DNA of 64,000 nucleotides, taken from positions 4,863 through 68,862 of the forward strand of contig CALXKD010000005.1 in assembly GCA_944388795.1 (NCBI GenBank), in the 5' to 3' direction. The notes below the pieces were generated by a model. The model was not told where the DNA came from, did no database searches, and was given only the letters and a program-made list of their open reading frames with translations. The translations under genes were made by a program, and so were the position numbers. The stretch comes from an uncultured Clostridia bacterium (GTDB taxonomy: Bacteria > Bacillota > Clostridia > TANB77 > CAG-508). Of the stretch, positions 15,725-61,686 are shown in pieces; position 1 is the first letter of the stretch; every line of letters starts with the position of its first letter.

Positions 15725-16742
15725 TTGAATAATATAGAAAATTTAAAGGATTTAATCATATATCAAAGTCAGAATAATAAAAATATATCAGTAGAGGTTT
15801 TATATAATGAAGAAGATTTTTGGTTAGCTCAAAAATCAATGGCAAAATTATTTAATGTGGCAGAAAATAATATTACATATCATTTACAAAATATTTTTAA
15901 AACAGAAGAACTAGAAGAAATTCGAACTACTCAAAAAATTAGAGTAGTTCAAAAAGAAGGAAATAGAAAAGTTTCAAGAGAATTAACATTCTATAGTTTA
16001 GATGCTATTATAGCAGTTGGTTATAGAGTAAACTCAAAAGAAGCAACAGACTTTAGAATTTGGGCAACAAAGACATTAAAAGAATATATTAAAAAAGGGT
16101 TTGTTGTGAATAGTGAGTTTTTAAAAAATGGACCAAAATTTGGAAAAGATTATTTTGATGAGTTATTAGTCAAAATAAAAGAAATTAGAGCAAGTGAAAG
16201 AAGGTTTTACCAAAAAATAACAGATATCTATAAAGAATGTAGCTATGATTATGATAAAAATAGTGAAACAACGCAAGAATTTTATAAAAATGTTCAAAAT
16301 AAATTACACTATGCAATTACAGGAATGACTGCTCCTGAGATTATTTATAATAGAGCAAACAGTGGAAAAGAAAATATGGGGTTAACTACATGGAAAAATG
16401 CACCAGATGGTAGATGTTACAGTAGCCAAAAATTATTTATTACAAGAAGAAATTACAGAGTTAAATAATTTAGTTTCAATGTATCTAGATTATGCAGAAA
16501 GACAAGTAAAGCTAGGTAAAATTATTTCAATGCAAGAATGGAAAGATAAGTTAGAAATATTTTTGAAAATTAACGAATATAATATTTTAAAAGATAATGG
16601 AAAAATAAAGAAAGAAATAGCAGATAAGCTTGCATTAGACGAATATAAAAAATATAGAATTATACAAGATAGAGAATATATATCTGATTTTGATGAATTA
16701 TTAAAAGAAACAAAAAAGTTAGAAAGTGGACAAGAAGGTTAA
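15725..16742 (+). pseudogene. RhuM-family protein, frameshifted (track ORFs 15725-16468 and 16398-16742)
   Basis: N-part WLAQKSMAKLFNVAENNITYHLQNIF...TWKNAPDGR and C-part DVTVAKNYLLQEEITELNNLVSMYLDYAERQ are the two halves of a RhuM protein in frames offset by +1. There is no CGG at the junction. Confidence 0.75.
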
Positions 16743-34912: not shown

Positions 34913-37900
34913 ATGAGTAAAATAAAGAAATTACTAATTGGTATAATTGTTACAATGATAGCAATCATAGGATTTACTAGTATATCTCAAGCTGCTTATA
35001 CTGTGGGACAAAATGTTACAATAACCTATAGTAACTATTTGAATGATCCAAACCTATTTTGTGTTGAGCATCATCAAGCATTGCGTGGAACGCTAACCTA
35101 TAAAGTGATATCACAAGTGGATATAAGAGGAAATACTTCAACAGATCATACTGGTAAAAGTATCGAAAGTTGGTATAACGCAAAATTAGCACATATTTTG
35201 TCAGCTGATAATGGAGCAAATAAACAGTCTGGACCAGTGCAAAATGCTATATGGAATTATATGTATACTTGGATAAAAAATGTAGGACAATATCATGCAG
35301 GATTATATGATGGATTTGCAAATACAGTAAAAGGAAATTCTTCATACTTAGATTCTCAATCATCAGATTATGCAAATGAAGTAGCAAATCTTGGTATAAC
35401 AGACAATACGAATAAAAATAATATCAGTGTAAGAGCAGATGGAGATCATATAAAAGTAGGACCATTTAATTGGTATTTCTCAGGAACTTTGAGTGAAATA
35501 AGAGTAAATGACCAAAATGGAAATGCAGTAAGTGGATTAAGCTTTAGTACATATAATGGAACTACAGAAACTGCTATTGGTATTGGAGATATAAAATCAG
35601 GAAAAGACTTCTATATATCTATACCAATCAGTAGTGGAATTAGCAGAATTACAACTATTACTGCAAAGGGAAGTGTAGCAGTAAAAGGGGTAACTATATG
35701 GTTCTTGGAATCACAAAGTGGATACAATTTCCAAAACTTAATATCTAGACAACCTTATGAAACACCTTATGAATATGAAACACCATTTGATTATAATATA
35801 GATTTACTAGGAAACTTAAAAGTAATAAAAGTAAATAAAGATAATCATGAAGTGAAATTACAAGGTGTTGGATTTAAAATTCAAAACAAAGAAACAGGTA
35901 AATATGTACATGAGGATGCAAATGGAACAATTACATATGTAGATGAAAGTCAAGCAACAGAATTTGTTACAGATCAAAATGGTGAGATTTTAATAGAAAA
36001 CTTAATTGTGGGTACATATGTAGCTTATGAAACCAAAAACCCTAATTATGGATATGAATTTATATCAGAAGGGGTAGAGCATACTGTTGTTGTTGATAAA
36101 ACAGAAGAATTTGTTATAGAGAATAAGCAAATCTATGTAAAACTTTCAGGATATGTATGGTTAGATAAGCAATATGCCAAAGAATCTCAAAGAAATGACC
36201 TATATAGGGACAATGATTATGATTCAGAAGATCAATTAATGGAAGGTGTTATTGTAAGATTAATTGATAGAGAAACAGGTGAAGTTGTAAGAGATGATAA
36301 TGGTAATGAGTTTAGAGCAGAAACAAAAGAGATTCAATTAGATGATGGAATTTTAAGATATTATCAATTTGTAGATGTTAGAATAGAAAATCTAGAAAAC
36401 TATTATATGCAATTTGAATATGATGGATTAACATATACAAATGTAGTTCCACATATAGATGTAGACAATGGTTCTAAGGCAGCAGAAAATGCCGAAACCA
36501 GAAGTGAATTTAATAAAGATTTTAGCACAATAGAAGGAAATTCTGAAACAACAGGTGTTACATTAGATGAAAATGGAAATACGGTACACAACTTATCTTA
36601 TAACAAAGATACAGAAGCACATACAGCAACATTAATCAATGAAGGTTTACCAGTTGGGCAATATCCAATAACGGCTAATACAGATGAAACAGGATATATC
36701 ATAAGAGACCATTTTGAATATGGAATGGAAGAAATACCATATATTAACTTGGGATTATATGAAAGAGAACAACCAGACTTAGCATTGATTAAAGATATGA
36801 AAAATGTAAGACTTGCTATTAATGGATATCAACATATTTATGAATATGATCAAAGATTCCAAAATCAAGGAGAATATGGAGACGGATTTAATGTTGGTGT
36901 TAAATTTGGTAGTGAGTATGCAGAACAAACATATACAAGAGCAATTTATAAAGCAGATTATGAATATGTAAATGAGAATGATGCAAGTAAAGAATTAAAA
37001 GTATATGTAACATATAGAATTGCAGTAAGAAATGAAGCAACCAGCTTAACTTCACAAGTAAATTCATTAGTAGATTATTTTGATAGTAGATATACTGTTG
37101 TGGCAGCAGGAACAGGCATTAATCAAGAAGGTATTATTACTGGTAATATAGACTATACACAAGAGGGCTACAATGATGAATACTCAAAAGCAATCATTTA
37201 CACAAATACAAAGATAGATGCACAAACACAAAGCGAATTCTATGTACAATTTGAACTAAGTAGAGAAGCAGTTATTAATATCTTAAATGATGGAGAAAAC
37301 TTAGACAATGTTGTAGAAATTAATTCATATTCAACATTTGATGAAAATGGAAATGCTTATGCAGGTGTAGATGTGGATTCTAATCCTGGAAATGCAATAC
37401 CAGGTGATAGAGCAACTTATGAGGATGATACAGATTCAAGTCCATCATTGAAGTTAGAAGTAGCAGATGCCAGAGAGATGGCTGGTAAAGTATTCTTAGA
37501 TTCTACATCAGGTGAATTATTAACAGGACAAATCAGACAAGGTAGTGGTGCTTATGAAGATGGAGAAACAGGAATACCAGGTGTCGCTATAACACTTACA
37601 GAAAATACAGGAAGTGGAAAAGTATATACAGCTACAACAGACGATAATGGTGATTTCTATATTTCAGACTTTATACCAGGAGACTATACTTTAACATATA
37701 CTTGGGGAGATACAACTTATACAGTACAAAACTATAAAGGAACTGTATATGATAAAGATAGATATGATGCAAATATGGCTAATAAAGAATGGTATAAAAC
37801 AGATGTGGCTACAAGATGGACAGATGCAGTAGATGATTATCAAACAAGATTAGATATAGATAATGAATTAAAAGAAATTACAAATTCTACACAGACAACA

Positions 37901-38857
37901 ATTGATAAAATGAATTCAACAACTCCAACAATGGGAATTGGTGTAGAATATGATACAACATATACAGCATCAGCAGGGGACAGATATGTATATAGAATTG
38001 AAAACATTGACTTTGGTATTGTAGAAAGAGCAAGACAAGATTTAGCATTAAGTAAAAGAGTAAGTTCAATGAAGGTTACTTTAGCAAATGGTACAACATT
38101 GGTAAACTTCCAAGTAAATGAGGATGGTAGCCTAGAGGGACAAACTTCAAGTGTAACATATATTCCACCATCAGATAGTTCATCACCAGAAAATGGATTA
38201 GTTAGATTGGAAATGGATAATGAGTTAATTCAAGGTTCTAGACTAGAAGTAACTTATGAAATACGAGTAGACAATAATAGTGAATTAGATTACTTATCTG
38301 AAAACTATTATAAATATGGAATCATAGAAGGAGATGTCGTAACAATCACACCATCAGCAATTGTAGATTACTTAGACAGTGATTGGAGCTTTGATGCAAC
38401 AAATAATCCAGATTGGGAAGTAATACAAAGTGATGATAGTAGAATTGATTTAGCAGAGGTTGTATATAATGATGAAAATTCAACAATAAATGAGAAAACT
38501 ATATTATATACAGAAGCATTAGCAGCTTATGATTTAGAGCCTACACAAAATGCAACAATTACGCTAAATGTTTCAAAATTATTATCAGCATCAGAAGATA
38601 TTGAATTAGACAATGAAACAGAAATTGTAAAGGTTAATAAACCAGGAGGATCTGATTTAGTATCAACACCAGGAAATTATATCCCAGGTACAGGACCGGA
38701 AGTAGAAACAGATGATGGTATGGCAGAAACAGTTATTATAACACCAAATACTGGTGATAACTTGAATTATATAATACCAATAGCAGTTATTATAACAGCA
38801 TGTATTGTATTAGGAGTAGGTGTTATCTTTATTAAGAAAAAGGTATTAAATAAATAA
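34913..38857 (+). CDS. giant surface adhesin B1 (1314 aa): thioester (TQXA-type) domain, CnaB/SpaA-type and SdrD-B-like domains, C-terminal TM anchor
   Basis: Signal peptide ...SISQA|AY. FCVEHH (Cys50) and VQNAIW (Gln110) thioester-domain motifs. CnaB fold with E-box-like YVAYETKNPNYGY. Two SdrD-B-like modules. TPNTGD, TM helix, KKKVLNK tail. GGAAAGGAGGG RBS 23 nt after A1. Confidence 0.85.
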   Translation: MSKIKKLLIGIIVTMIAIIGFTSISQAAYTVGQNVTITYSNYLNDPNLFCVEHHQALRGTLTYKVISQVDIRGNTSTDHTGKSIESWYNAKLAHILSADNGANKQSGPVQNAIWNYMYTWIKNVGQYHAGLYDGFANTVKGNSSYLDSQSSDYANEVANLGITDNTNKNNISVRADGDHIKVGPFNWYFSGTLSEIRVNDQNGNAVSGLSFSTYNGTTETAIGIGDIKSGKDFYISIPISSGISRITTITAKGSVAVKGVTIWFLESQSGYNFQNLISRQPYETPYEYETPFDYNIDLLGNLKVIKVNKDNHEVKLQGVGFKIQNKETGKYVHEDANGTITYVDESQATEFVTDQNGEILIENLIVGTYVAYETKNPNYGYEFISEGVEHTVVVDKTEEFVIENKQIYVKLSGYVWLDKQYAKESQRNDLYRDNDYDSEDQLMEGVIVRLIDRETGEVVRDDNGNEFRAETKEIQLDDGILRYYQFVDVRIENLENYYMQFEYDGLTYTNVVPHIDVDNGSKAAENAETRSEFNKDFSTIEGNSETTGVTLDENGNTVHNLSYNKDTEAHTATLINEGLPVGQYPITANTDETGYIIRDHFEYGMEEIPYINLGLYEREQPDLALIKDMKNVRLAINGYQHIYEYDQRFQNQGEYGDGFNVGVKFGSEYAEQTYTRAIYKADYEYVNENDASKELKVYVTYRIAVRNEATSLTSQVNSLVDYFDSRYTVVAAGTGINQEGIITGNIDYTQEGYNDEYSKAIIYTNTKIDAQTQSEFYVQFELSREAVINILNDGENLDNVVEINSYSTFDENGNAYAGVDVDSNPGNAIPGDRATYEDDTDSSPSLKLEVADAREMAGKVFLDSTSGELLTGQIRQGSGAYEDGETGIPGVAITLTENTGSGKVYTATTDDNGDFYISDFIPGDYTLTYTWGDTTYTVQNYKGTVYDKDRYDANMANKEWYKTDVATRWTDAVDDYQTRLDIDNELKEITNSTQTTIDKMNSTTPTMGIGVEYDTTYTASAGDRYVYRIENIDFGIVERARQDLALSKRVSSMKVTLANGTTLVNFQVNEDGSLEGQTSSVTYIPPSDSSSPENGLVRLEMDNELIQGSRLEVTYEIRVDNNSELDYLSENYYKYGIIEGDVVTITPSAIVDYLDSDWSFDATNNPDWEVIQSDDSRIDLAEVVYNDENSTINEKTILYTEALAAYDLEPTQNATITLNVSKLLSASEDIELDNETEIVKVNKPGGSDLVSTPGNYIPGTGPEVETDDGMAETVIITPNTGDNLNYIIPIAVIITACIVLGVGVIFIKKKVLNK

Positions 38858-39179: not shown

Positions 39180-42100
39180 ATGAAAAAGAAGGTTTTGAAA
39201 TTAGTAACAGTAGTAGCTTTAATTGCCGTATTAATGTCATTTAATATGGTGCCATTAGGATATAATGTAGTAGTAGCATTAGCAAGTGAGCTAGATGCAC
39301 AAAGTAATAACACAAATATTGCTAATGTTAAATTTGATGCCTATTTTAAAACAGATAGTGGAAATGTACATGCTAAGCAATCAAATATCAGTGACGGTGA
39401 GAATTATTTGTACATCAACATAAATGTTTTAGAAAAAGGTAGTTTGGATAATGCCAAAATAAAAATCAATGATTCTAATTTCAAAATTAAAGGAAATAAC
39501 ATTTCTAATACATATATAAAAAGTGTAAATGTGGAAGCAAATGAAATAGAATTAAATTCTATCATTTATAATAATAATGTAGAAATAGAAATTCCAATTG
39601 AATTTAATAAGGTAAATAATGTGAATGGAACATATTTTTCAAAAGAAACCAATGTTTCATTAGAAGGAACATATAAAGAGGAAGAGGATGAAGAAGCTTT
39701 ACAAGGAAATATTGTTACAAAATTAGAATGGACAGATAATGCAGAAGCAAAACTTTCACAATCTATTGAAAAATGTATAGATTTAGGAGAAAATGGAGTA
39801 TTAATCCAACAACAAATTACAAGTACAATAGACAATGGCAACTTACCAAGAGAATCAGAAGAATTTCATGTGGTAGTTCCTAAAATAGGAGATAATTTAC
39901 CAAATAATATTCAAGTGCTTTCAAATGGAAAGAAACTAAATGATGGTAATATTCAATATGATGCAGAAGCTGGACAATTAAAAATAACAAGAGAGAGTAC
40001 AACAAATGAAGAAGGAAATACAAGTTGGGATAGCGGTATAGATGAATATAAAGTTATATATACTTATGATAAAGCTGTAAAGGAAAATGTAAGTACCATT
40101 CATTTAAAAACAGAGATGAATAGTAAACTGTTTACAAAAGAAAATAACCAAAAAATAGATGAACAAGATGTAACACTAGAATTTAAAGGAAATGTGGTAA
40201 GCAGTAAGAAAAGTACAACACAAGAGGTATATAAAGGATATTTATATGCAAATTCTGCAAACGAAACGATATTTAGAGAAAATAATGTTATAGAAATATC
40301 AAAAGCAGAGGTTATTGATTATATAAAAGCAAGTACCAATAATTCACATTTTGTTGGAAGTGAAGAAAATGCATATGATGCAAATAGTATTGTTTTATAT
40401 AAAGAAACATTGATTAATAAAAACAGATTTATAGAATTATTTGGTGAGAATGGATATTTAGATATCAAGGATGCAAATGGAAATGTAATAGCAACGGTTA
40501 ATAATCAATCAGAAACAAGTGAAGACGGAAATGTACATATTACATATGCACAACCTTTAACAGGAATATATATTGAAACATCAAAACCAATAAAAGAAGG
40601 ACAATTCACAATTCATCATGTAAAATGTATACAAGGAAATACAGGATATGCAAAAAATCAATTAAAAACATTTACAAGATTAAACACAAATGAAGTTGTT
40701 GAGACAAATTTAGGATTAGACCAAACAGAGGCAAATATCAATTTATTAGACACTGTAACAGAAGCAAGATTAGAGGTTAATAATACAAATTTATCTACAT
40801 TACAAAAAAATGAAAATGTTCAATTTACCATAACTTTAAAAACAGCATCTGAAAAATATGACTTATTTAAAAATCCAGTAATTGAACTTACATTACCAAG
40901 TAGTATTTCTAACATAGATGTAAAATCAGTTAATAAAGTTTATGCAGATGAATTTAATATAGAATATGCTAGATTGAGAGATGGAGCTAATGGAGAAAAA
41001 GTGATTCAAATTGCATTATCAGGACAACAAAGTGATTATTCTAAGGAAATAAATGAATTAGCAATCGTTATTAATGCAGATATAGAATTTAGTGTCTTAA
41101 CAGCTAGTCAAAAATCTAATATTGCAATGTCATATACAAATGAAAATGGAAATGAAGCAAGTTATCAAACTTCTGTGGATATTAATATAGAATCAAAACC
41201 AGGTATGATGATATATAATAATCTATCAGGATTTAATACAGCAGGAGATTCTATTTATACAATAGATGATAATATTCCAATGGGAGTATTAGATATAGAA
41301 GGCGGAGCTATGACAGCCAGAGCAAGTACAGCAATTATTAATAATTATGATATAGAAATAAAAGATGTTGTAATTATTGGTAGAATACCTAAAAAAGGTG
41401 TTTATGATGGAACTCTAGATACAACATTAGTTGGAGGAATTCGTACAAATGTTAGTGGTATTGAAATCTTATATTCACAAAATATAGCAGCAACACAAGA
41501 TGATGGATCTTGGAGTACAGATTATACAAATGCCGCTTCATATATGATAAGACTAGATAGTGTGGCAGCAGGACAAGCTATAGCACTTCAATATGAAATA
41601 GGAATACCAGAAAATATTGGATATGGACAAAGTATATATGCACAAACAAATACAACATATACGTATTTAGGAAATGTGAACACACAAACTTCTACAATTG
41701 GTGCAAAATCAGAAAATGTAATTACCAATAATATATTAGCGTTAGCAAGTACAACGCAAACTGAACAAAATGGATTAGGAATTGCCATATCTGCTGTATC
41801 TGGAGGAAGTGAATTAGAAGAGGGAACTCCTGTATATGAAGGACAAATGATTACTTATACAATGCAAATAACTAATCATACAGGAAGTGACTTACATAAT
41901 GTAAATATAAAAGCAACACAAACAAATGGACATCTTTATGATTTAATTGAAGAAGAAGCATTTGATCCTAATGCTCAGGAAGAAACAGAAGGAATATATC
42001 ATAAATATGCGGAATTAGATACAAATGAAAAAACATTTGATACAATAGATACTTTAGCAAATGGAGAAAGTGTGATTTTACAATATAATAGTATCGTTTT

Positions 42101-44588
42101 AGAAACAGAGGATGAGTCAGCACAAACAAATGGAAGTATCAATATACAAGCAGATGGACTAGATGGAACAACAATCAATACAATAACAAATCCTATAAAA
42201 CAGGCTGAAATAAAAGCGATTATGCAAAATCCTTTCTACGAAGAAGAACAGTTATATATTGGAAGAAGTATACATATGAACTTAGAAATAGAAAATATAT
42301 CTGGAAATAAATTACAAAATGTAAAAGGAACAATACAATTACCAGATGGTGTTCATGTAAATGATGCTTCAGATTTGATATGGGGGACAACTATTGTAGA
42401 GGGAGAGAGTTTAAATCTTACAGAAGATAAAGTAACGAATCGTACATATAATCAAGAAAATAATACACTAACATTTGAGATTCCTAGTATGGAAGCTGGA
42501 GAAGTTACAACACTAGAGTTATATGTTCAAATTGATAGTTTTGAAGGAATAGAAAAGGACTATACATTTATGTATCAAATGGAAGGACAAAATGTATATG
42601 TGTCAAATATGGCTACATTAAAAATTTTAAATACACAAAGAAATATAGTTGCAGAACAAACTGCTAATATAGATGATAATGTAGGATTAAAATCCGATCA
42701 ACTATTTGAAATTACAACAAGAATTGAAAACAATGATTCAGAGGATTTACATTTTCAATTTTCTGATGCTCTTCCAGAGGGATTTACAGCACAAGGAGGA
42801 ATTGTTAGATATCAAGGACAGGAAACAGAAATACCAATTCTTAGTGAATTTGAAAGTACACAAGATTTTATAATATTCGAAAATATTCTATCAGGCGAAA
42901 TGACTATACCAGCAGGTGAAAGTGTAGAAATTGTATTAACAATATTGGCTGAAACAGAATATATAACAGAAGATACAATTACGAATACAATGGATATTGT
43001 CTATGGAAAACTAAATGAAGACAGTCAGGTTTATCAATATGAATGGACTGGTACAATGCAAGCAAGTAAAGAATATACAATTGCTTCATCAGATGAAAAT
43101 GAAAATGAAAATTGGGTAGAAGTCATACAAACAGGAAATCCAGAAAATAATACAGTATTAGAAAATGGACAAGACATAACTTATACATTTGAAATAAAAA
43201 ATACAAGAGATTATGAAATTGTGACAACAATATATGACTATATTCCAAAAGGAATTACAGTAGAATCTGTAACATTTAATGGAGAACAGCTATCAGCAGG
43301 AGATGTCTACATCGAGGGACATAGAATGGCTGCAAATTCAACCTCAACACTAGAGATAAAAGCATATGCAGATATTGCGCAATTAACCAATACAGATTTA
43401 GTGAATAATTTAACTGTTTCAACTGTTGTAGGAGATGTAATTTCAAATGATATTACTTATAAAGTCGTTTCAGAAGAAACGCCAACAGATCCAGAAAATC
43501 CAAATCCAGATAATCCAGAAGATCCAAATAACCCAGAAGATCCAAATAATCCAAACAATCCAAACAATCCAGGTCAAAATCAATACACAATTAGTGGTAC
43601 AGCATGGATAGATAGCAATCGTGATGGAAAAAGAGATGCTTCAGAAGCTGTATTATCAGGAGTAGGAGTCAGGGTAGTAGATGCTGATCAGGGAACATAT
43701 GTAGATAATGCTAATACAACGACTTCATCAAATGGACAATATCAAATAACAGTAGGAAATGGTAACTATATATTAGTATTTGCATATGACACCGGAAGAT
43801 ATAATCTTACAGAATATAGAAAAGAAGGCGTAGAGGAAAGTCAAAACTCAGATGTTATCAGCAGAAATGTAACAATTGATGGAACTAACAGTACACTTGG
43901 AGCAACAGATGTTATTAGTGTAAATTCAGGAAATATAACTAATATAGATATTGGATTAATCGAAGCTTCAACATTTGATTTAGAATTAGACAAATATGTA
44001 AGCGAAGTTATTGTACAAACTAACAGAAGTACAACACAATATGGATACAATGATCAAAATCTAGTAAAAGTAGAGATACCAGCAAGAGAATTAAACAATG
44101 CAACAGTCATTATACGATATACAATCAAAATTACAAATGTAGGAGAAGTTGCAGGATATGTACAAAACATTGTAGATTATATACCATCTGACTTAAGCTT
44201 TAGTTCAGAACTAAATTCAGATTGGTATCAAGTAAATGCAAATTTACAAAATAATAGCTTGTCAAATACAGCTATAGCACCAGGTCAAATGCAAACAGTA
44301 GACTTAGTTTTAGTAAAAACAATGAATAATGATAATACAGGAACAGTGATTAATATAGCAGAAATTGGAGAGGCATCTAATACCTTAGATTTGAGTGATA
44401 CAGACTCAACACCAGGAAATAACAATGCTTCTGAGGATGATTACGGAAGAGCAGAAGTTATCATCAGTGTAGGAACAGGTGGCGTAATTATATTTGTATC
44501 AATCATATTCATGATATTGATATTAACAGGATTAAGTGTATTTATCATTAATAAAAAAGTATTAAAAAAAGATGAGATAGATTTTTAA
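39180..44588 (+). CDS. giant surface protein A2 (1802 aa), paralogue of A1
   Basis: Signal peptide. Architecture colinear with A1, including ISGTAWIDSNRDGKRDASE (SdrD-B-like) and LELDKYVSEVIVQ...TNVGEVAGYVQNIVDYIPSDLSFSSELNSDWY. Pro/Asn linker. VGTGG, TM helix, basic tail. Confidence 0.85.
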   Translation: MKKKVLKLVTVVALIAVLMSFNMVPLGYNVVVALASELDAQSNNTNIANVKFDAYFKTDSGNVHAKQSNISDGENYLYININVLEKGSLDNAKIKINDSNFKIKGNNISNTYIKSVNVEANEIELNSIIYNNNVEIEIPIEFNKVNNVNGTYFSKETNVSLEGTYKEEEDEEALQGNIVTKLEWTDNAEAKLSQSIEKCIDLGENGVLIQQQITSTIDNGNLPRESEEFHVVVPKIGDNLPNNIQVLSNGKKLNDGNIQYDAEAGQLKITRESTTNEEGNTSWDSGIDEYKVIYTYDKAVKENVSTIHLKTEMNSKLFTKENNQKIDEQDVTLEFKGNVVSSKKSTTQEVYKGYLYANSANETIFRENNVIEISKAEVIDYIKASTNNSHFVGSEENAYDANSIVLYKETLINKNRFIELFGENGYLDIKDANGNVIATVNNQSETSEDGNVHITYAQPLTGIYIETSKPIKEGQFTIHHVKCIQGNTGYAKNQLKTFTRLNTNEVVETNLGLDQTEANINLLDTVTEARLEVNNTNLSTLQKNENVQFTITLKTASEKYDLFKNPVIELTLPSSISNIDVKSVNKVYADEFNIEYARLRDGANGEKVIQIALSGQQSDYSKEINELAIVINADIEFSVLTASQKSNIAMSYTNENGNEASYQTSVDINIESKPGMMIYNNLSGFNTAGDSIYTIDDNIPMGVLDIEGGAMTARASTAIINNYDIEIKDVVIIGRIPKKGVYDGTLDTTLVGGIRTNVSGIEILYSQNIAATQDDGSWSTDYTNAASYMIRLDSVAAGQAIALQYEIGIPENIGYGQSIYAQTNTTYTYLGNVNTQTSTIGAKSENVITNNILALASTTQTEQNGLGIAISAVSGGSELEEGTPVYEGQMITYTMQITNHTGSDLHNVNIKATQTNGHLYDLIEEEAFDPNAQEETEGIYHKYAELDTNEKTFDTIDTLANGESVILQYNSIVLETEDESAQTNGSINIQADGLDGTTINTITNPIKQAEIKAIMQNPFYEEEQLYIGRSIHMNLEIENISGNKLQNVKGTIQLPDGVHVNDASDLIWGTTIVEGESLNLTEDKVTNRTYNQENNTLTFEIPSMEAGEVTTLELYVQIDSFEGIEKDYTFMYQMEGQNVYVSNMATLKILNTQRNIVAEQTANIDDNVGLKSDQLFEITTRIENNDSEDLHFQFSDALPEGFTAQGGIVRYQGQETEIPILSEFESTQDFIIFENILSGEMTIPAGESVEIVLTILAETEYITEDTITNTMDIVYGKLNEDSQVYQYEWTGTMQASKEYTIASSDENENENWVEVIQTGNPENNTVLENGQDITYTFEIKNTRDYEIVTTIYDYIPKGITVESVTFNGEQLSAGDVYIEGHRMAANSTSTLEIKAYADIAQLTNTDLVNNLTVSTVVGDVISNDITYKVVSEETPTDPENPNPDNPEDPNNPEDPNNPNNPNNPGQNQYTISGTAWIDSNRDGKRDASEAVLSGVGVRVVDADQGTYVDNANTTTSSNGQYQITVGNGNYILVFAYDTGRYNLTEYRKEGVEESQNSDVISRNVTIDGTNSTLGATDVISVNSGNITNIDIGLIEASTFDLELDKYVSEVIVQTNRSTTQYGYNDQNLVKVEIPARELNNATVIIRYTIKITNVGEVAGYVQNIVDYIPSDLSFSSELNSDWYQVNANLQNNSLSNTAIAPGQMQTVDLVLVKTMNNDNTGTVINIAEIGEASNTLDLSDTDSTPGNNNASEDDYGRAEVIISVGTGGVIIFVSIIFMILILTGLSVFIINKKVLKKDEIDF
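43482..43574 (+). repeat. short in-frame tandem repeats encoding a Pro/Asn/Asp/Glu linker in A2
   Basis: ccagaagatccaaataa[c/t] twice (43515-43550) followed by ccaaacaat twice (43551-43568). Encodes PTDPENPNPDNPEDPNNPEDPNNPNNPNNPG. Confidence 0.7.
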
Positions 44589-44609
44589 GGAAAGGAGGGG
44601 AGAACATAC

Positions 44610-47600
44610 ATGAAAATAAAAATGAAAACAGAAATCAGTTTTATTATTTCTATTATACTGATTGTTCTACTAGGAGTATTTATATATAAAGTTTCAGGAG
44701 TAGAAGGAGATGACTTAGCTTCATCAGCACAAAATAGTAGTTCACTTTTCTGGAATGATATAAAAATAGGAGATATTGTAAATCAAGAGAATATAGAAAA
44801 TTCTTCACGAAGCCGAAACTGGATATGTTTTAGCCATGAGACACTTAATGGTTTTGGTACGAATAATGAAGTAAAATGTATATTAGATATTAATATGTCT
44901 GAATTAGGGAAATACACAGTACAAATCAAAGGAAAAACAACAGTAAATGATAAGGCATATGGTAATGATAAAAATATAAAAAAATTAGTATATTTACTTT
45001 ATGCAGCTACAGTAGATTCTAGTCCTGGACTAGTAGGTGCAGAAGGTGCAAGTGCTTCAAAGAATGCATTATATTATTTCTTTAACAGTACTAACCTAGA
45101 ATATTTAATAGGTGATTTTAGTAAAAGGAGAACAAGCGAATATACAAGTGAATCAAAATCTGCAGGAGCAACTGTTTTAAAATATGCACAAACATATGCA
45201 GATTCTGAAACAACAGGTTCAAATGCAGAAATAACTAGCAGTAGTGATTCTGGAGCGGAGGTAAAAGTATCTCAGGCATCTAATGGAACTAGTTATAGTT
45301 ATATAGGACCATTTACTATGAAAACAGCAGGAACGATTAGTAGTGTTAGTATTAAAGATGGAAATAGTACACCAGCTGTTGCAGGATATGCTTTGTCAGT
45401 AGGAGGAGATGTAAAAGCTACTTCAGGAATTCCTAGAAATGGTAATAAGTTTTATATTGCAACAACTGCAGTTCTAACGAATTTAAATGTTAATGTAACA
45501 ATAAATACATCAGGAACTGCTGGGGGAGGAACTGTAACAAATCCTGTAACAAAAGCTAAATCAACAGGTTATGTTAGAGGAAGAATTATTTTTATGGGAG
45601 GTACTACAGGACAAGCAACTGCTATATTCAGAGGAGATCCAATTTCAACATCACCAACAAAAGATAGTGTAACATTTACAGCAAAAAACAACTTGGGAAA
45701 AATGGTAATACAAAAAGTAGGAGCATATGCAGGAAATGAAGCTTATGAGAATGTTAGAGATTTTGGATTTAAAGTTTACTATTTAGATGGTTCAACAAAA
45801 AAATATTTAAGAATCAACAATAGTGACACCATTCGTAATCAAGCAACTGTATCAATGGGAGGAAATAGTTCATATGCAGCAAATGCTAATACAGCAACAA
45901 CGATATTTACCTCAAGCAATGGAACGGTTACAATTGATAATATCTCTATTGAATATCAATATTACATAGAAGAATCTAATACAGATGAAACCAATTATAA
46001 TGCAGAAATTATTAGTGCAACTAGTCAAGCAGGAACAGGACAAGTAACAGATCTAAGAATAGATGGAAATACAGCAGGTCCAATTACAGTAACGCTTAAA
46101 GGTGCTAACAATACAGCAACAAAAATTATGTTAAAGGACTATAGAAAAGTAGGATCTTTAACAATAGAAAAAGTCGATCAAGATGACTATAATGTAAAAT
46201 TAGGAAATGTAGAATTTAAACTAAGAAATAAAGACACAGGAAATTATGTAATTGCTGAGAAAACAGGAGATGGACAATATAATATTCCAGATCAATTAAA
46301 AGGTTATACGCCAAATGAAGCAGATGGAACATCTTTTATAACACATCCAACAAACGGAACAATAACCATCAATGGCTTAGATGTTGGTAATTATGAAATT
46401 ATCGAAACAAACAATCCAAATTATGGATATACGGTTTTACCAGAAAATGTTTCAACAACAGTTGTAAATGGAAGTACAACTACAGCAACTGTACAAAATG
46501 AAAAACAAACAGGAAACTTATTTATAGAAAAGAAAGATGCAGATAATGAAGCTGCCAAAATAGGTGGTATCAGCTTTAGAATAAGAAAGAGTGTATCTGC
46601 TGAAGATCAAGCAGCTCTTGCAGATTTTGTTGAAGGAAAAGGTGACGTAAATAATAATGGATATCTAGAGGAAGAGGATTTAAAACTTGTATTAAGACAT
46701 GTTACAGAAAAATTAGAACTTACCTCTGAGCAACGAAATGCAGCAGATGTTAATGGAGATGGACAAGTTAATGTAGCAGATTTACGTTTATTAACGAGAA
46801 AAATACAAAGCGGTGGATATGTTGTTGGAATGCAAAGTGATAGCTCAGGAAACCTAACATCAATTACAACAGCAACAGGCACTGTACATTTTGATAGTAT
46901 GACAACTACAAATAATCCAGATGAAGCAACTACATTTGTAACAGATGCAGAAGGATTAATAAAAATATATAATATATTAATTGGTAATTACGTAGTAGAA
47001 GAGATTTCTGTAGGAGATAATTTTGGTTATGATATAGATCCAAACTTTATTTCTTGGGAAGTAACCAATAGTGATGGAACAAAAACGACTGTAAATCTAT
47101 CAACATCAGCAACAATAGAGGTAACAAGACAAAAATCTACAGATACCAACAGTACAGCAGCGCAAAATGGAACAGGAAGCGCAAGTGAAATGACGAATAA
47201 AAACAGAAGAAAATATATCAAAGTAAGTGGATATGCTTGGGAAGATAAGACAGATGGAAAAGGAAGTCAAAAAGATTATCAATGGACTGATGGAACAGAA
47301 GATAGAAGATTACAATATATCACAGTTACTTTGAAGAATGCAGATGGAATAGTATTAGATACAAGAGTAACAAATGCAAATGGTGAATATAACTTTGGTA
47401 ACTATGATGAGGATTCTAGTGCTATTAAACTAGAAATAGATGAATTACCAGGAGCTTATATAGAATTTGAGTATAATGGTATGAGTTATCAATCAATACC
47501 AATCAATTCTGAATTCGGAATGATATCTGCTACGAATACAGGTGGATTAAATACAGCAAATATTATTAGTGGTACAAAAAATAGTGCAACAGATGAAGCA

Positions 47601-50093
47601 TTAAGAGATGCATTTAATAATAATTATGCAACGATTCGTAAAGGAATTTCTCAAAATACACAAGATCAAAAAGTATATGATATACAATATACATATAGTG
47701 ATTATAAAAGTACAGTGGTTTATGGGGATTCTGTAAATTATGGATATGAAGGTCAAAGATATCCAATATCAGGTGTATATGACCAATATGAGATAACAGC
47801 AGTAACAAATGCAAATGAGAATAATGCACTATGTACACAATATACAACACAAGATATTAGACAAAATAGTGTATTAGAAATAGCTGGTATCAACTTAGGT
47901 GTAGAAGAAAGAGAAATGCCAGATCTAAACCTATCAAAACAAGACCTTGAAAAAATAGAAGTACAGCTTAATGATTATACACATACATATAAATATGGAC
48001 AGGTATCAGCAGACCCTGATGGATTTGCAGGAGGAGATGTATCTAATATAGCAGTTAGATTTGCTAGTAAATATTTTGAAAGCTCATATACAAGAGAAAT
48101 CTACACAGCAGATGTTGTATATAACAAGCAACCAGGAAATGAAGGTAAACTAAAAATGTATATGACCTATAAGATAGAAATAACAAATGAAGCAACAAGT
48201 CTAAATAGTACAGTAAAAACAATAGCAAATTATTATGATGCTAGATATGAGAATATGGTTATTACAGATGAAAATGGAAATACAATTGATTATCAAATTG
48301 ATGATAGCTATAATGTTAATGGCTTGAAGAAAATGGAGATATATGTAAATCAACAATTGGCAGCACAAACTTTAAAAACAATTACGATTCGTTATCAATT
48401 AAATAATGATGCAATAAATGCATTATTAAATGGAGAAACAACATTGGATTCTATTAGTGAAATAACAGGATATTCAACATATATGGATAATACATTTACA
48501 ACTCCTTATGCAGGAATAGATGTGGACTCTGCACCAGATACTGTAATACCAGGAGATAGATCAACTTATGAGGATGATACAAACTGGGCACCATCATTAA
48601 TTATTGTACTTAAAGAAGGAAGAATTATACAAGGTACAGTTTGGGAGGATGCACCAATAGAAGACTTACTAGAGGGAACAGGATATGATAAACAAAGAAT
48701 TGGTGATGGACAATATCAATCAAGTGAAAATATTGTTAATAATGTTAAAGTTGATTTAATGTTAATTGATGAATCTGGAAATCTAACATTGGCAAAATTG
48801 TATAAGAGAGATGAAACTGTAGTAGATGCAACAACAACAACTAGCGGAAAAGGTGAATATAGTTTTGTAGGTGTAGAACCAGGAAATTATGTCATAAGAT
48901 ATACTTATGGAGATAATAGTGTCATTTGTGATGCAGAAGGTAATGAAATAAAAAATGTAGATGCTGATATTTATAAATCAACAATCTATAGAGGTGGAAA
49001 TAAAGACGCAGTAAATAGCATGACAGACTACTGGTATAGAGGAGAAACTAGTCATGAGGGTGCTATTAGACTATCAGATGCAAAGGATAATGAGGAATTT
49101 GTAAATGATAGAATCACAGAAGAAGAAGTAAATTATGAAACCGTAACAGGTAGAATGCAATTAACAGAAATCAGTGCAGATACTAGAAAATTTGATATAA
49201 AATTGGATTATGATATCAATTTAGACAATATTAGTGAATATGGTGTAGACTTGAAATTTGTCTTTGATAATATTGACTTTGGTATTATAGAAAGACCAAG
49301 ACAATCATTACAGATAGATAAAGAGATAGGCTATTTACAATTAACATTAGCTAATGGTGTCAACACAATTAATGGTGATCCAAGAAGTCAAAACTTATCA
49401 GGTGTTGTTGCATTACCAGATGGTAATATACATATAGAGGTTGACAATGAAATTATACAAGGTGCAACATTAAAAGTAACTTATGAAATTACTGTAGATA
49501 ATAGTAATTGTGAGATAGACTATAATGATGAGGATTACTATATTTATGGAACTGTTCCAGCAAACAAAGAGGAAGTATTCAAAATTGCAACAGTTGTAGA
49601 TATGTTTGACTATTTACCAGAAGATGTTGTATTAGAATCAACTGACGGTAATAACTGGGAAAGAATAACAATATCAGAGGATATGAAGGGAACACTTCTT
49701 CAAAATGAGGTATATGATGTTGTAAGAAACTTACAAAATGTTATACACTTAAAAAATCCAGTATTTGAAAATATGCAACCAGGCTCAGAGGCCGTAGATA
49801 CAAGTATGGTGGTAACAAAACAATTATCTGTTTCATCAGATGATTTGGTATATGAAAATGACGTAGAGGTTGTAAAATTAAAAGGAAGAAAAACAATTGA
49901 TTCAATTCCAGGAAACTATGATCCTACTACAAATACGCCAGATGAATATGATGATGATAGAGTAGAATTGACTATTACAGGACCAACTGGTGAAAACAGA
50001 CAATATATCATATATGGAGCAATAGGAATTGGTATGTTAATCATTGTTGGAATAGGTATTGTTATCATAAAAAGAAAAATCTTAAAAAAATAA
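44610..50093 (+). CDS. giant surface adhesin B2 (1827 aa), paralogue of B1 with degenerate thioester motif and an embedded dockerin-like module
   Basis: TM/signal anchor. ICFSHE (Cys73) but SKNALYY in place of TQxAIW. Two CnaB/SpaA-type domains (NYEIIETNNPNYGY). Regions colinear with B1 (NEATSLNSTVKTIANYYD; GIDVDSAPDTVIPGDRSTYEDDT). GPTGE, TM helix, KRKILKK tail. AAAGGAGGGG RBS 21 nt after A2. Confidence 0.85.
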   Translation: MKIKMKTEISFIISIILIVLLGVFIYKVSGVEGDDLASSAQNSSSLFWNDIKIGDIVNQENIENSSRSRNWICFSHETLNGFGTNNEVKCILDINMSELGKYTVQIKGKTTVNDKAYGNDKNIKKLVYLLYAATVDSSPGLVGAEGASASKNALYYFFNSTNLEYLIGDFSKRRTSEYTSESKSAGATVLKYAQTYADSETTGSNAEITSSSDSGAEVKVSQASNGTSYSYIGPFTMKTAGTISSVSIKDGNSTPAVAGYALSVGGDVKATSGIPRNGNKFYIATTAVLTNLNVNVTINTSGTAGGGTVTNPVTKAKSTGYVRGRIIFMGGTTGQATAIFRGDPISTSPTKDSVTFTAKNNLGKMVIQKVGAYAGNEAYENVRDFGFKVYYLDGSTKKYLRINNSDTIRNQATVSMGGNSSYAANANTATTIFTSSNGTVTIDNISIEYQYYIEESNTDETNYNAEIISATSQAGTGQVTDLRIDGNTAGPITVTLKGANNTATKIMLKDYRKVGSLTIEKVDQDDYNVKLGNVEFKLRNKDTGNYVIAEKTGDGQYNIPDQLKGYTPNEADGTSFITHPTNGTITINGLDVGNYEIIETNNPNYGYTVLPENVSTTVVNGSTTTATVQNEKQTGNLFIEKKDADNEAAKIGGISFRIRKSVSAEDQAALADFVEGKGDVNNNGYLEEEDLKLVLRHVTEKLELTSEQRNAADVNGDGQVNVADLRLLTRKIQSGGYVVGMQSDSSGNLTSITTATGTVHFDSMTTTNNPDEATTFVTDAEGLIKIYNILIGNYVVEEISVGDNFGYDIDPNFISWEVTNSDGTKTTVNLSTSATIEVTRQKSTDTNSTAAQNGTGSASEMTNKNRRKYIKVSGYAWEDKTDGKGSQKDYQWTDGTEDRRLQYITVTLKNADGIVLDTRVTNANGEYNFGNYDEDSSAIKLEIDELPGAYIEFEYNGMSYQSIPINSEFGMISATNTGGLNTANIISGTKNSATDEALRDAFNNNYATIRKGISQNTQDQKVYDIQYTYSDYKSTVVYGDSVNYGYEGQRYPISGVYDQYEITAVTNANENNALCTQYTTQDIRQNSVLEIAGINLGVEEREMPDLNLSKQDLEKIEVQLNDYTHTYKYGQVSADPDGFAGGDVSNIAVRFASKYFESSYTREIYTADVVYNKQPGNEGKLKMYMTYKIEITNEATSLNSTVKTIANYYDARYENMVITDENGNTIDYQIDDSYNVNGLKKMEIYVNQQLAAQTLKTITIRYQLNNDAINALLNGETTLDSISEITGYSTYMDNTFTTPYAGIDVDSAPDTVIPGDRSTYEDDTNWAPSLIIVLKEGRIIQGTVWEDAPIEDLLEGTGYDKQRIGDGQYQSSENIVNNVKVDLMLIDESGNLTLAKLYKRDETVVDATTTTSGKGEYSFVGVEPGNYVIRYTYGDNSVICDAEGNEIKNVDADIYKSTIYRGGNKDAVNSMTDYWYRGETSHEGAIRLSDAKDNEEFVNDRITEEEVNYETVTGRMQLTEISADTRKFDIKLDYDINLDNISEYGVDLKFVFDNIDFGIIERPRQSLQIDKEIGYLQLTLANGVNTINGDPRSQNLSGVVALPDGNIHIEVDNEIIQGATLKVTYEITVDNSNCEIDYNDEDYYIYGTVPANKEEVFKIATVVDMFDYLPEDVVLESTDGNNWERITISEDMKGTLLQNEVYDVVRNLQNVIHLKNPVFENMQPGSEAVDTSMVVTKQLSVSSDDLVYENDVEVVKLKGRKTIDSIPGNYDPTTNTPDEYDDDRVELTITGPTGENRQYIIYGAIGIGMLIIVGIGIVIIKRKILKK
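46641..46812 (+). other. dockerin type I-like module inside B2
   Basis: Duplicated Ca-loop plus helix: GDVNNNGYLEEEDLKLVLRHV ... ADVNGDGQVNVADLRLLTRKI. It is inserted within the second CnaB-type domain. Confidence 0.6.
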
Positions 50094-60200: not shown

Positions 60201-61686
60201 TTTGACCAAATCCGAAGGAGAAACAGCAGGAATATTGGGAGAATTTATAGGAAGTACAGGGTATGCCAATTTAACAAATGTATATAATGTTGGATATATC
60301 TTGAATGGAAACCAAATGATATATGATAAAGAAATTGATGCTGCATTTGAAAATTGCTATGTAATACCTACAGAAAAGAATGAAGAAGAATTTAAGGATA
60401 TAGAGGGCATTAAAGAAATAGATGACAATTTATTAAGTCAAATGTTGAAGGATTTGAATGATCATTCTGAAAATTTAGATGATTGGAAATTAATGGATAA
60501 CTATAAATATCCTGTATTAAAGTGGCAAAATGAAGAGCAATTTGATGAACAAAATAAAAATCTAAATATAATTGCAATTCGTAATCCAAAGGAAAATACA
60601 AATAAAGATGTCATATTAACAATATTTTCTAATAAAAAGATGAAACAAAATGATGGATGGGAAATTTCACAAGATGGCTATATGCAAACAAAAAGTTTTT
60701 CTACATCAGAGTCAGTTGAATTTGTTGTGGAAGATATATATGGAGGCTCTTGTAAGGTTGATGAAAGGATAAGGATTAATAAAGAACAAATTGCAATTGA
60801 GGATATAACTATAGAATATAATAAAATAGCAGATGATTATATTATTATGAAACTCAAAACGAAAAAACATTTAAAAGCAGATTTAGAGGGATTGATTCCT
60901 CTTGAAAGGTGGGTACCTGGTGATACATGTACAACATTTTATAAGATATATTATTCTCAAAATTTAGAGGATATAATCACTTTAGAGGATTCTTATGGAA
61001 ATCTAACAGATATACACTTGCCACTAAGTGAAAGTGTTGATATGATACCACCACAAGTTAAAGTAGAATATAGTACAAAAGAAATTACAGAAGGAAATGT
61101 AATCGTAACAGTAACTATAACAGCAAATGAAGAAGTACAAGAATTAGAAGGATGGACATTGTCAAGTGATAAAAAAACCTTAACAAAAGAATATAATACA
61201 GCAACAGAAGAAACCGTCGTAATAAAAGATATAGCGGGAAATGAAACAAAAGTAGAAATAAAAGTAGAAATTGAAGAAATCTATTCAGAAAAATATGAAA
61301 TAGATAATGAAAATAGATATATATTAAGAGTGTTACCAGAAACAACAGTAAATGTGTTTAAAACAAATATAAGTGTAAAAGGAACTTATAAAATAGTAAA
61401 TTCAAATGGAAAAGAAATAAATGGAGAAGAATATATAACAACAGGAAGTAAATTAATAACAGAAGATAATAAGGAATATAGAATTAGCGTAATAGGAGAC
61501 TTAAACCAAAGTGGAACTATAACATTGACAGATATATCTATGCAAAGAAAACATATCTTAGAGCTAGATATATTAGAAAATGAGATATATCAAGCAGGAG
61601 ATATCAATAAGGATGGAAAAATCACGTTAGACGATTTATCAAAGATGAGAAAAATAATTTTAGGAATAGAAGATATGGTATCATGA
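57259..61686 (+). CDS. secreted 1475-aa LRR protein with GLUG-motif region, Ig-like domains and C-terminal dockerin
   Basis: Signal peptide. About 20 internalin-like 22-aa LRRs (LxxLxLxxNxIxdIsnl, about 57830-59360). GLUG-like repeats (AGIFGV, SGGIVGY, AGGIVGK, AAGIVGS, TAGILGE; about 59860-60260). C-terminal GDLNQSGTITLTDISMQRKHIL...GDINKDGKITLDDLSKMRKIILG. Confidence 0.85.
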   Translation: MKYKICLVCLLVLLIICQNFIFTFHQVFASDIKANGETNNMETDKNEDTSSDKTVNDLSINFKNFDNETNSPEVALNMDKSQEKIKQEYESKMENKEKIKQIKEKNETSTNAQLMGSTAQNEQAQNVTISFKDKHLFYAMIDEIEELLISYDEETYTIVISQDNLNSIEDLNLGSYGWESIGNGGFDWLTAYISDFSGIEKFVNLKELTIGIPNEVEYVDFTPIETLKNLERLVIGNNLNSDFYGIFNINHLAKVFPNLKTLYIYGIHNININHIEWPTTLEEIKIAECTFLEQPIVDWSELNHLKSLYIRQTNLCTIQDIKIPKNVEEIRFDSNELANLDNVDFGNCLSYIDLNDNQIEDISNVKFPNTLEKLLIGKNKLKSIDSLKDNTNLKLLSISDNYIEDIRVVENLTNLTGLYAGTWYAVLFPGVISGQIIDRGNEIKNISNIKWPESLTFLDLSGNKITNIDNIHFPEKLNEIRLNKNEIAEINNFTILSNWRTINLENNDISKITGLKFEPTTKTRYLQLSYNQITNFVGVDWTNSLIEELDIAHNNLSTLENLPTDLEILVANNNKLSDISNVNWNALPIDSLDLACNQIEVVNNIEWNSHLRYLILSYNHISDISSLRFTSSLDALELAGNNISDLSVFSNEESNELIGLNLAKNNIRNITPLENVTDLKELLIGRNQIQDFSGLEKLQNLSSINAESQYYLYGENINAIPNILTEAMKESSIIATKDIEYDNCELKDGKINIIDSNQIATIIFTSGNAKGTTIYFDLSGKLQNNIYKISTKEDLLKISELSHKGVGFYGIEIQMEASIDMGAYYDIEEDTWKGDTWNPIGTKSVPFEGIFDGNFNTISGILTDENYAGIFGVSVGTIKRLGSKNSHIDGDISGGIVGYMYNLGEEERGIIQDCYNDSYVEGSSYAGGIVGKAEWIQICNTYNTGMIVGSDVAAGIVGSWTDSTYRYGNIVLYNVYNAGKILTKSEGETAGILGEFIGSTGYANLTNVYNVGYILNGNQMIYDKEIDAAFENCYVIPTEKNEEEFKDIEGIKEIDDNLLSQMLKDLNDHSENLDDWKLMDNYKYPVLKWQNEEQFDEQNKNLNIIAIRNPKENTNKDVILTIFSNKKMKQNDGWEISQDGYMQTKSFSTSESVEFVVEDIYGGSCKVDERIRINKEQIAIEDITIEYNKIADDYIIMKLKTKKHLKADLEGLIPLERWVPGDTCTTFYKIYYSQNLEDIITLEDSYGNLTDIHLPLSESVDMIPPQVKVEYSTKEITEGNVIVTVTITANEEVQELEGWTLSSDKKTLTKEYNTATEETVVIKDIAGNETKVEIKVEIEEIYSEKYEIDNENRYILRVLPETTVNVFKTNISVKGTYKIVNSNGKEINGEEYITTGSKLITEDNKEYRISVIGDLNQSGTITLTDISMQRKHILELDILENEIYQAGDINKDGKITLDDLSKMRKIILGIEDMVS
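61495..61680 (+). other. dockerin type I-like module at the C-terminus of the LRR protein
   Basis: Two DxNxxGxIxxxD loops, each followed by an amphipathic helix. Confidence 0.65.

Follow-up and report, generated by a model that had tools for sequence, protein, structure and literature searches.

A dockerin module nested in a CnaB-type domain of a predicted clostridial surface adhesin: a candidate lateral docking site

The B2 protein and its inserted module

B2 is a large surface protein encoded in a 64,000-nucleotide stretch of DNA (hereafter, the window) from an uncultured Clostridia bacterium of the TANB77 lineage (assembly GCA_944388795.1, contig CALXKD010000005.1, positions 4,863 to 68,862 of the forward strand), and one of its CnaB/SpaA-type domains is interrupted by a dockerin, a module of the type that binds cohesins. 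Four genes for large surface proteins (A1, B1, A2 and B2) lie ahead of a SpoIIE gene, and that of B2 is the last of them. The features of B2 are listed below in window coordinates.

44610..50093, + strand: B2, a surface protein of 1827 amino acids (aa) with a signal-like N-terminus, a head resembling thioester domains (TEDs), three CnaB/SpaA-type domains, an SdrD_B-containing stalk and a sorting-like C-terminal tail
44736..45695, + strand: head of B2, residues 43-362, divergent and class II thioester-domain-like, with invariant Cys73 (44826-44828) and Gln335 (45612-45614)
46512..47207, + strand: host CnaB/SpaA-type domain, residues 635-866, with a predicted isopeptide triad of K641 (46530), E798 (47001) and N865 (47202)
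46590..46802, + strand: optional insert of 71 aa in the B-C loop, residues 661-731, delimited as a single gap against the empty-site alleles P0033 and P0030
46590..46640, + strand: N-terminal helical extension of the insert, residues 661-677 (17 aa), with F673 and G676 invariant (19/19 rows) and a helix at model residues 31-36
46641..46811, + strand: dockerin core G678-S734, comprising calcium loop 1, helix 1, a linker helix, calcium loop 2 and helix 3
46644-46679, + strand: calcium loop 1, D679-D690
46746-46781, + strand: calcium loop 2, D713-D724
49980..50090, + strand: C-terminal GPTG motif, hydrophobic segment and basic tail, by sequence a putative sortase-type or membrane anchor

The two dockerin repeats recognised in the initial annotation both lie in frame within the open reading frame (ORF) of B2, and residues 677-732 match the Pfam family Dockerin_1 (PF00404) with 42.3 bits against a cut-off of 22.9. 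A generic pair of EF-hands, the alternative named in that annotation, was rejected, with EF-hand_1 (21 bits, cut-off 25.4), EF-hand_7 (19.7, cut-off 30) and EF-hand_6 (18, cut-off 25) all falling below their thresholds. An AlphaFold2 model of residues 634-872, computed from a 30-row alignment (mean predicted local distance difference test 85.5, predicted template modelling score 0.75), places strands A and B first, then a short additional helix, the three helices of the dockerin and the remaining strands of the beta-sandwich. Model residues 42-102 match the Clostridium thermocellum dockerin 2ccl_B (Z 11.8, root-mean-square deviation (rmsd) 1.5 Å, 61 aligned residues), and Foldseek agrees. In an alignment of 19 insert rows, several of which are near-copies, the calcium-ligand positions 1, 3, 5, 9 and 12 of the two repeats hold Asp or Asn in every row at nine of the ten side-chain positions, the exception being position 9 of repeat 1 (Glu in 11 rows, Asp in 7, Gly in 1). 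Judged by the sequence profile and the predicted structure, the insert is a true type I dockerin with the three-helix fold. The repeats had been described as canonical, which holds for the calcium ligands and fails for the recognition positions, where they are asymmetric; likewise, the extent first proposed corresponds to the core (46641-46811), and the insert as a whole is 71 aa, reaching 17 aa further at its N-terminal end.

An assembly artefact was also rejected, as contigs from the sequencing runs X8/X9, which look like a single data set, span 46208-47253 over both junctions of the insert. A joint skipping the 213 nt is not listed in the contigs of four runs, an uninformative negative given that contigs drop rare variants. 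A contig from an RNA library covers 46574-46907 with no differences, which, without a silent control, is not proof of transcription.

The host domain retains the marks of an isopeptide-forming CnaB fold. The triad Lys of the first strand, Glu of the E-box and Asn of the last strand are each present in 30/30 alignment rows, and model residues 1-239 match pilin CnaB domains on both sides of the insert (Z 12.9 and 12.7), the match to SpaD (5yu5) having a Z of 12.9 and an rmsd of 2.3 over 120 aligned residues. In the empty allele P0030, Pfam SpaA is called on residues 635-756, and in the paralogue B1, which carries no insert, as had been noted, the SpaA domain at 300-405 is uninterrupted. The insert sits in the B-C loop, between K641 and N865 of the triad, and the structure prediction and the empty-site alignment thus agree with the nesting that the initial annotation had proposed. 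Its ends carry Arg-Lys at both sides in 13/19 rows and, in the window, a short AGAAA repeat whose copies are 213 nt apart. Insertions of side domains into CnaB loops are known from pilins. As the insert lies between the Lys and the Asn, a load on the stalk would bypass the dockerin if the isopeptide bond forms. The N- and C-termini of dockerins meet in a clasp, as described in the accessible part of PMC3821032, and with termini so close together the module would fit a hairpin loop.

An optional and expandable cassette

A homologue search with B2 region 505-875 found 80 homologues among the best 7999 candidates scored, 20 of which, B2's own cluster included, have a dockerin at B2's site. Eleven empty-site rows of the alignment extend to either side of a gap of 66-73 columns. 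A single 71-aa gap, at residue 661, separates the proteins P0017 (1870 aa) and P0030 (1799 aa), which are 95-100% identical in 15 of the 19 blocks of 100 residues compared. For the host domain with the insert removed, a tree was built from 57 rows, 21 with a dockerin, leaving out 9 near-duplicate or mis-cut rows, 2 without the start motif and hits under 40 bits. Parsimony places seven changes of dockerin presence on this tree, of which the well-supported branches force only two; a single origin with repeated loss or recombination would be compatible with it. Mosaic genes also occur, P0023 being 95-100% identical to B2 from residue 801 onwards and 21-35% identical over the first 600 residues. 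Of 338 genomes from the genus, 8 have the full nested form, among them the B2 genome; of 378 genomes sampled from the family's other genera, none does. Many of the surveyed genomes are incomplete. The ratio of nonsynonymous to synonymous substitution rates (dN/dS), computed for the window against 7 loci with our own Nei-Gojobori script, is 0.26-0.50 for the insert and 0.24-0.52 for the host; by this measure, the insert is under purifying selection, like the host domain. Separately, a clade of host domains (P0006, P0007, P0009-P0016, P0018, P0019, P0021, P0022 and P0035; L079) has an insert of 5-6 residues, mostly with a Cys, in the same B-C loop, possibly the remnant of a lost cassette.

The module is neither restricted to this position nor to a single copy. 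A profile search of 1.84 billion representatives, of which the top 150 stretches were considered, yielded six best stretches that cover the whole profile; three were known from the homologue search, and the three new ones (P0087, P0177 and P0096, the last of 809 aa) have the dockerin at B2's site. In P0121 (residues 676-862) and P0226, repeats worth about three dockerins occupy the same B-C loop, those of P0121 being partial loop-helix units, not all of them complete dockerins. In P0097, 12 tandem dockerins by eye, or 10 stretches by Pfam, occupy residues 410-1245; they separate strand A from the E-box within a single CnaB-type domain and apparently sit in the next loop along. A third location is seen in P0069, whose dockerin belongs to the C-terminal region. 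Among the copies of these relatives, repeat 1 is charged in most, and Val stands at position 10' in 6 of 9 parsed copies. Recruitment of dockerins at several places and their amplification would point to use rather than accident.

Recognition residues and the predicted docking face

The recognition pairs of the B2 dockerin, repeat 1 against repeat 2, are E-E/V-A at positions 10/11, K-L/R-L at 14/15 and L-R/T-R at 17/18. Four of 11 helix positions are identical between the repeats, a weak measure of asymmetry because the terminal dockerin encoded on contig C4 of the same genome scores the same 4/11; it is the charge contrast at 10/11 that carries the point. The insert does not have the internal symmetry of dual-binding-mode dockerins, and asymmetric dockerins bind in a single mode according to the sections of PMC5429695 available, in which positions 10, 14 and 18 (in our numbering) contact the cohesin in solved complexes. 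Across the 19 rows, repeat 1 has E/Q/T at 10 and E/D/A/Q/N at 11, and repeat 2 has I/T/V at 10'. Conservation is centred on L727 (Leu15', 19/19), R726 (Arg14', 15/19) and R730 (Arg18', 16/19), together with K731 (18/19) and R696 (16/19). From these patterns, the B2 dockerin likely has at most one binding face. On type I geometry, we take the helix-3 face to have its centre remote from the point where the insert joins the host domain, and the degenerate face to lie beside that point.

Candidate partners are encoded in the genome (1.67 Mb, 74.5% complete), in which six dockerins and three cohesins exceed the Pfam cut-offs. A genome without any cohesin, which the initial annotation would have counted against cohesin binding, is therefore not what was found. 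The three cohesins are located on contigs C27 and C10 (C27:20011-20787, C10:39968-41050 and C10:35579-36913); each is single and its protein ends in an anchor, two with LPxTG-like tails and the third with a hydrophobic tail alongside cadherin-like domains, and two of the three genes stand directly behind a dockerin gene. A custom 48-seed cohesin profile detected no further cohesin in the genome, and neither this profile nor Pfam detected one in A1, A2, B1, B2 or the rest of the window, in line with the first reading of this DNA, although very divergent cohesins are not excluded by these searches. At the level of the genus, a cohesin is present in 98 of 121 genomes and a dockerin in 113; all seven other insert-bearing genomes have cohesins, making 8/8 with this one. 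A cohesin class specific to insert-bearing genomes was looked for and not seen, both core cohesins being present in genomes with and without the insert.

Several gene arrangements of the lineage combine the two modules. Positions 35579-41050 of contig C10 (L225) form a conserved four-gene block of a cohesin-LPKTG protein, a sortase, an SH3/Big_2 protein with a C-terminal dockerin, and a cohesin-cadherin-like membrane protein; both cohesins recur in 9 of 10 other genomes checked, and the first in 10/10. The SH3/Big_2 protein presumably has a glucosaminidase-like N-terminus, which Pfam does not call. L186, L189, L191 and L193 hold single ORFs in which a cohesin, an [IL]PxTG motif, a hydrophobic segment, and basic and signal-like stretches are followed by an N-terminal dockerin and a giant protein. 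Because dockerin genes precede cohesin genes and these four ORFs join an anchor to its cargo, the cohesin-dockerin pair looks functional in the lineage. In L015, L016, L017, L021 and L022, secreted cohesin-linker-dockerin adaptors of about 310 aa are encoded directly before giant proteins with N-terminal dockerins; no such adaptor was detected in the B2 genome at its 74.5% completeness. L014:1495-1926 (- strand) encodes a 144-aa protein with an N-terminal hydrophobic segment, which we take to be pilin-like, and a C-terminal dockerin that is the best match to the B2 insert among 60 relatives searched (43% over query 25-101). L023:949-1680 (+ strand) encodes a 244-aa protein with a C-terminal dockerin, among genes that look phage-tail-like by eye. 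A cellulosome was considered and rejected: the genome, as far as complete, has three single-cohesin proteins and no multi-cohesin scaffoldin, and Pfam calls a pectate lyase domain in one of its six dockerin proteins.

Taken together, the sequence patterns and the model lead us to predict, with a probability of about 0.5, that the B2 insert is a single-face lateral port for cohesin docking on a self-anchored, TED-like adhesin. B2 would be a fibrillar adhesin of the TIE type, in which isopeptide domains form the stalk below a thioester-domain-like head, and the dockerin cassette, spliced into the B-C loop of the last CnaB domain, would project sideways and dock in a calcium-dependent manner. Docking would occur via one face dominated by helix 3, as repeat 2 keeps a hydrophobic residue or Thr at 10', Arg14', Leu15' and Arg18', and repeat 1 is acidic at 10/11. 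Because all three detected cohesins are anchored, docking would brace the adhesin or keep it in place on the cell that produces it, or tie it to an adjacent cell; the port could load cargo in those relatives that have free cohesin-dockerin adaptors. If the port binds, covalent host adhesion and cohesin-dockerin assembly would be joined in one molecule, and pairs of natural alleles, one having and one lacking the cassette, open this to a direct test.

Several observations weigh against such a port. B2 has a putative anchor of its own, so that the dockerin would be unneeded for display, and the assignment of its head to the TEDs is weak by fold. Position 11' takes eight residue types in the 19 rows, and positions 21/21', which hold Leu in canonical dockerins, are polar or small; the extra helix and the host domain could, moreover, cover the binding face. 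Cohesins also occur in 3/3 empty-site genomes, and their co-occurrence with the insert consequently does not discriminate, while none of the 42 B-gene loci L069-L110 contains a cohesin. Finally, the two cohesins that all insert-bearing genomes have in common show good conservation (71-99% and 40-90%), a poor match for a recognition site that drifts.

It is possible, though we favour it less, that the module folds and binds calcium without engaging any cohesin, and acts as a stiff lateral knob, as antigenic decoration, or as a patch for self-association or for another kind of partner. The variability at positions 10, 11 and 11' would suit such a role, as would an extra conserved helix that could cap the face, the partly incomplete dockerins of P0121, and the functional ambiguity of one module of a C. 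thermocellum double dockerin, reported in the accessible part of PMC12484212, whereas the conservation of Leu15', Arg14' and Arg18' at positions known as cohesin contacts (PMC5429695, in the sections available) and the presence of cohesins in all eight insert-bearing genomes argue for a port that docks.

A broader and more tentative extension of the docking port is that the adhesin family works as an inverted scaffoldin, in which loops of an isopeptide-locked stalk show 0-12 force-shielded dockerin side ports that cross-link to cohesins or load cohesin-bearing cargo. The ports would be gained and lost as cassettes, the cohesins would reside on the same or neighbouring cells, and the adhesin itself would attach covalently.

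The leucine-rich repeat protein and the idea of a shared receptor

The initial annotation had pointed to a second dockerin at the end of a leucine-rich repeat (LRR) protein downstream of B2 and had suggested that both proteins use one receptor.

61495..61659, + strand: C-terminal dockerin of the LRR protein (57259-61686), residues 1413-1467, 32.2 bits, of a sequence class other than that of B2

The terminal dockerin is borne out by this match. It is 31% identical to the B2 dockerin and 49-51% identical to the C-terminal dockerins encoded on contigs C27, C4 and C1, and together these four form one class (49-73% identity, I/L-T at 10/11 and R-K at 17/18). The terminal dockerin on C10 represents a second class (S-V, Q-R), and the B2 dockerin is 25-36% identical to all five terminal dockerins, which follow a common upstream module that B2 does not have. 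The C27 dockerin gene stands directly before a cohesin gene. That B2 and the LRR protein dock on one cohesin is accordingly improbable: in both, the dockerin is of Pfam type I and has Arg at or close to 17/18, and cross-reactivity between classes is known from other systems (PMC12484212, in the part available), but the identity of 31% against 49-73% within the LRR, C27, C4 and C1 class, the different residues at 10/11, 14/15 and 17/18, and the missing upstream module in B2 all separate the two, and the shared receptor is not upheld. The partner of the B2 dockerin would be a cohesin other than that of the LRR protein.

Equally improbable is that the dockerin is a tolerated passenger, copied into a permissive loop, kept because misfolding harms the host domain and lost by recombination at no cost; its presence in only 8/338 genus genomes, the near-identical alleles without it, the short repeat at both ends as a route of precise excision, and a dN/dS below 1 that selection for folding alone could yield are outweighed by recruitment at three positions with amplification to 12 tandem copies, by persistence across host domains only about 50% identical, and by the conserved surface Arg and Leu residues.

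Relation to known systems

Non-cellulosomal dockerins are widespread, as described in the accessible parts of PMC6487960, PMC2930009 and PMC12484212. The glycosidase pair of C. perfringens (PDB 2OZN, cited in the available text of PMC3821032 and PMC5429695) and ScaE of Ruminococcus flavefaciens share with the present system a type I-like dockerin fold and single anchored cohesins, and non-cellulosomal systems more generally share non-enzymatic cargo, including LRR proteins (PMC2930009, in part), and a probable single binding mode. In R. flavefaciens FD-1, the dockerins counted in the accessible part of PMC2930009 are C-terminal (156), internal (32) or N-terminal (19); none was found described there inside another domain, whereas that of B2 is nested, optional and carried on a putatively self-anchored protein. 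Tandem arrays like those of P0097 and P0121 have a parallel in dDoc_0689 and the triple to septuple dockerins of C. thermocellum (PMC12484212, in the part available), from which they differ in that up to 12 copies lie within one adhesin CnaB domain. The sortase pilins, such as SpaA and SpaD of Lactobacillus rhamnosus and RrgB of Streptococcus pneumoniae, share the host fold and the Lys/Glu/Asn triad; in B2, the inserted unit is a dockerin, and the protein is an 1827-aa adhesin instead of a backbone pilin. Atlas clusters contain SpaA and Dockerin_1 proteins of about 560 aa (150 and 69 members, scores 0.89 and 0.85), and the two domains hence occur together in other proteins as well.

In the literature searched, which covered few subscription journals and no supplements, no dockerin nested in an isopeptide domain or carried on a TIE-type adhesin was found, nor a genus-wide non-cellulosomal cohesin-dockerin kit in small-genome Clostridia. 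The word dockerin does not occur in the accessible text of a survey of fibrillar adhesins (PMC9210967). A link to a published TANB77 pilin was considered and rejected, as PMC11680825 concerns Tad/type IV pilins and its accessible text has no occurrence of dockerin, cohesin or sortase. All parts of the B2 arrangement are known, and it is the nested, optional and expandable combination that was not found. For protein scaffolds, it is of interest that a loop of a mechanically stable domain naturally accommodates 1 to 12 dockerins.

Head, putative anchor and neighbouring genes

Two further genes of the locus bear on the nature of B2.

34913..38857, + strand: B1, a B2 paralogue without the insert, whose head meets the TED sequence motifs
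39180..44588, + strand: A2, the upstream partner gene of the A/B pair, in which no cohesin was detected

Cys73 and Gln335 of the B2 head are kept in 27/27 alignment rows and align with, or adjoin, the motif Cys and Gln of the B1 head, to which the B2 head is homologous (hhalign 96.7%, E 3e-10). The B1 head (encoded from window position 34913 to 35800) contains all three TED motifs described in PMC6194298 (Cys50, Trp114 and Gln274; 20-21 of 22 rows), and Pfam returned no TED match for either head. A Foldseek search with the B2 head gave four matches at E<=0.001, all of them class II TEDs (6fwy/6fwv) and all weak (template modelling score about 0.2, rmsd about 15), and a VIA search with it showed no TED among the 50 rows listed and nothing above Z 7.6. 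The TQxx(phi)W motif is absent from the B2 head, the aligned segment having Tyr/Phe for the Trp and no Gln in the 27 rows; according to the available sections of PMC6194298, this motif is not essential for the thioester bond. On these sequence comparisons, the head is best described as TED-like and not as a proven TED. The TIE proteins (BaTIE, 6fwv; EfmTIE86, 6fwy; PMC6194298) resemble B2 in a Cys/Gln head with a beta-sandwich, putative in B2, an isopeptide-type (CnaB) stalk and a C-terminal sorting-like signal, and insertion of one domain into another is known in their class from Cpa, in which a TED lies inside an isopeptide domain. B2 differs from them by its missing TQxx(phi)W motif and weak fold match, and no dockerin is reported in the accessible part of that paper.

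The B2 tail reads as a GPTG variant of the LPxTG-like signal; seven sortase matches were found in the genome, none of them in the window. NCBIfam assigned no family to B2, and A2 as a query against Protein Data Bank sequences matched only stalk domains. Thirteen of the 80 homologues have the A-type and B-type genes combined in one ORF of about 2900-3100 aa. The A part keeps its sorting-like motif, hydrophobic segment and basic tail, directly after which come a signal-peptide-like stretch and then the B protein, and the product looks like a polyprotein of two proteins (P0032, P0034, P0036, P0040, P0041, P0047, P0051, P0057, P0063-65, P0069 and P0070; L069, L070, L072 and L073).

A part of the B2 head region (44598-45243) has diverged in the strains of runs X8/X9 and X15, where the flanking DNA is near-identical. 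These versions constitute tip variation, a diverged head ahead of the same stalk being seen in strains of three runs. The housekeeping genes of the window have among them a gene for a VirD4/TraG-type coupling protein (5387-6982) and a RhuM-family gene (15725-16468). Related loci carry the title uncultured Clostridia, and most of the runs that hold this DNA are recorded as chicken gut metagenomes.

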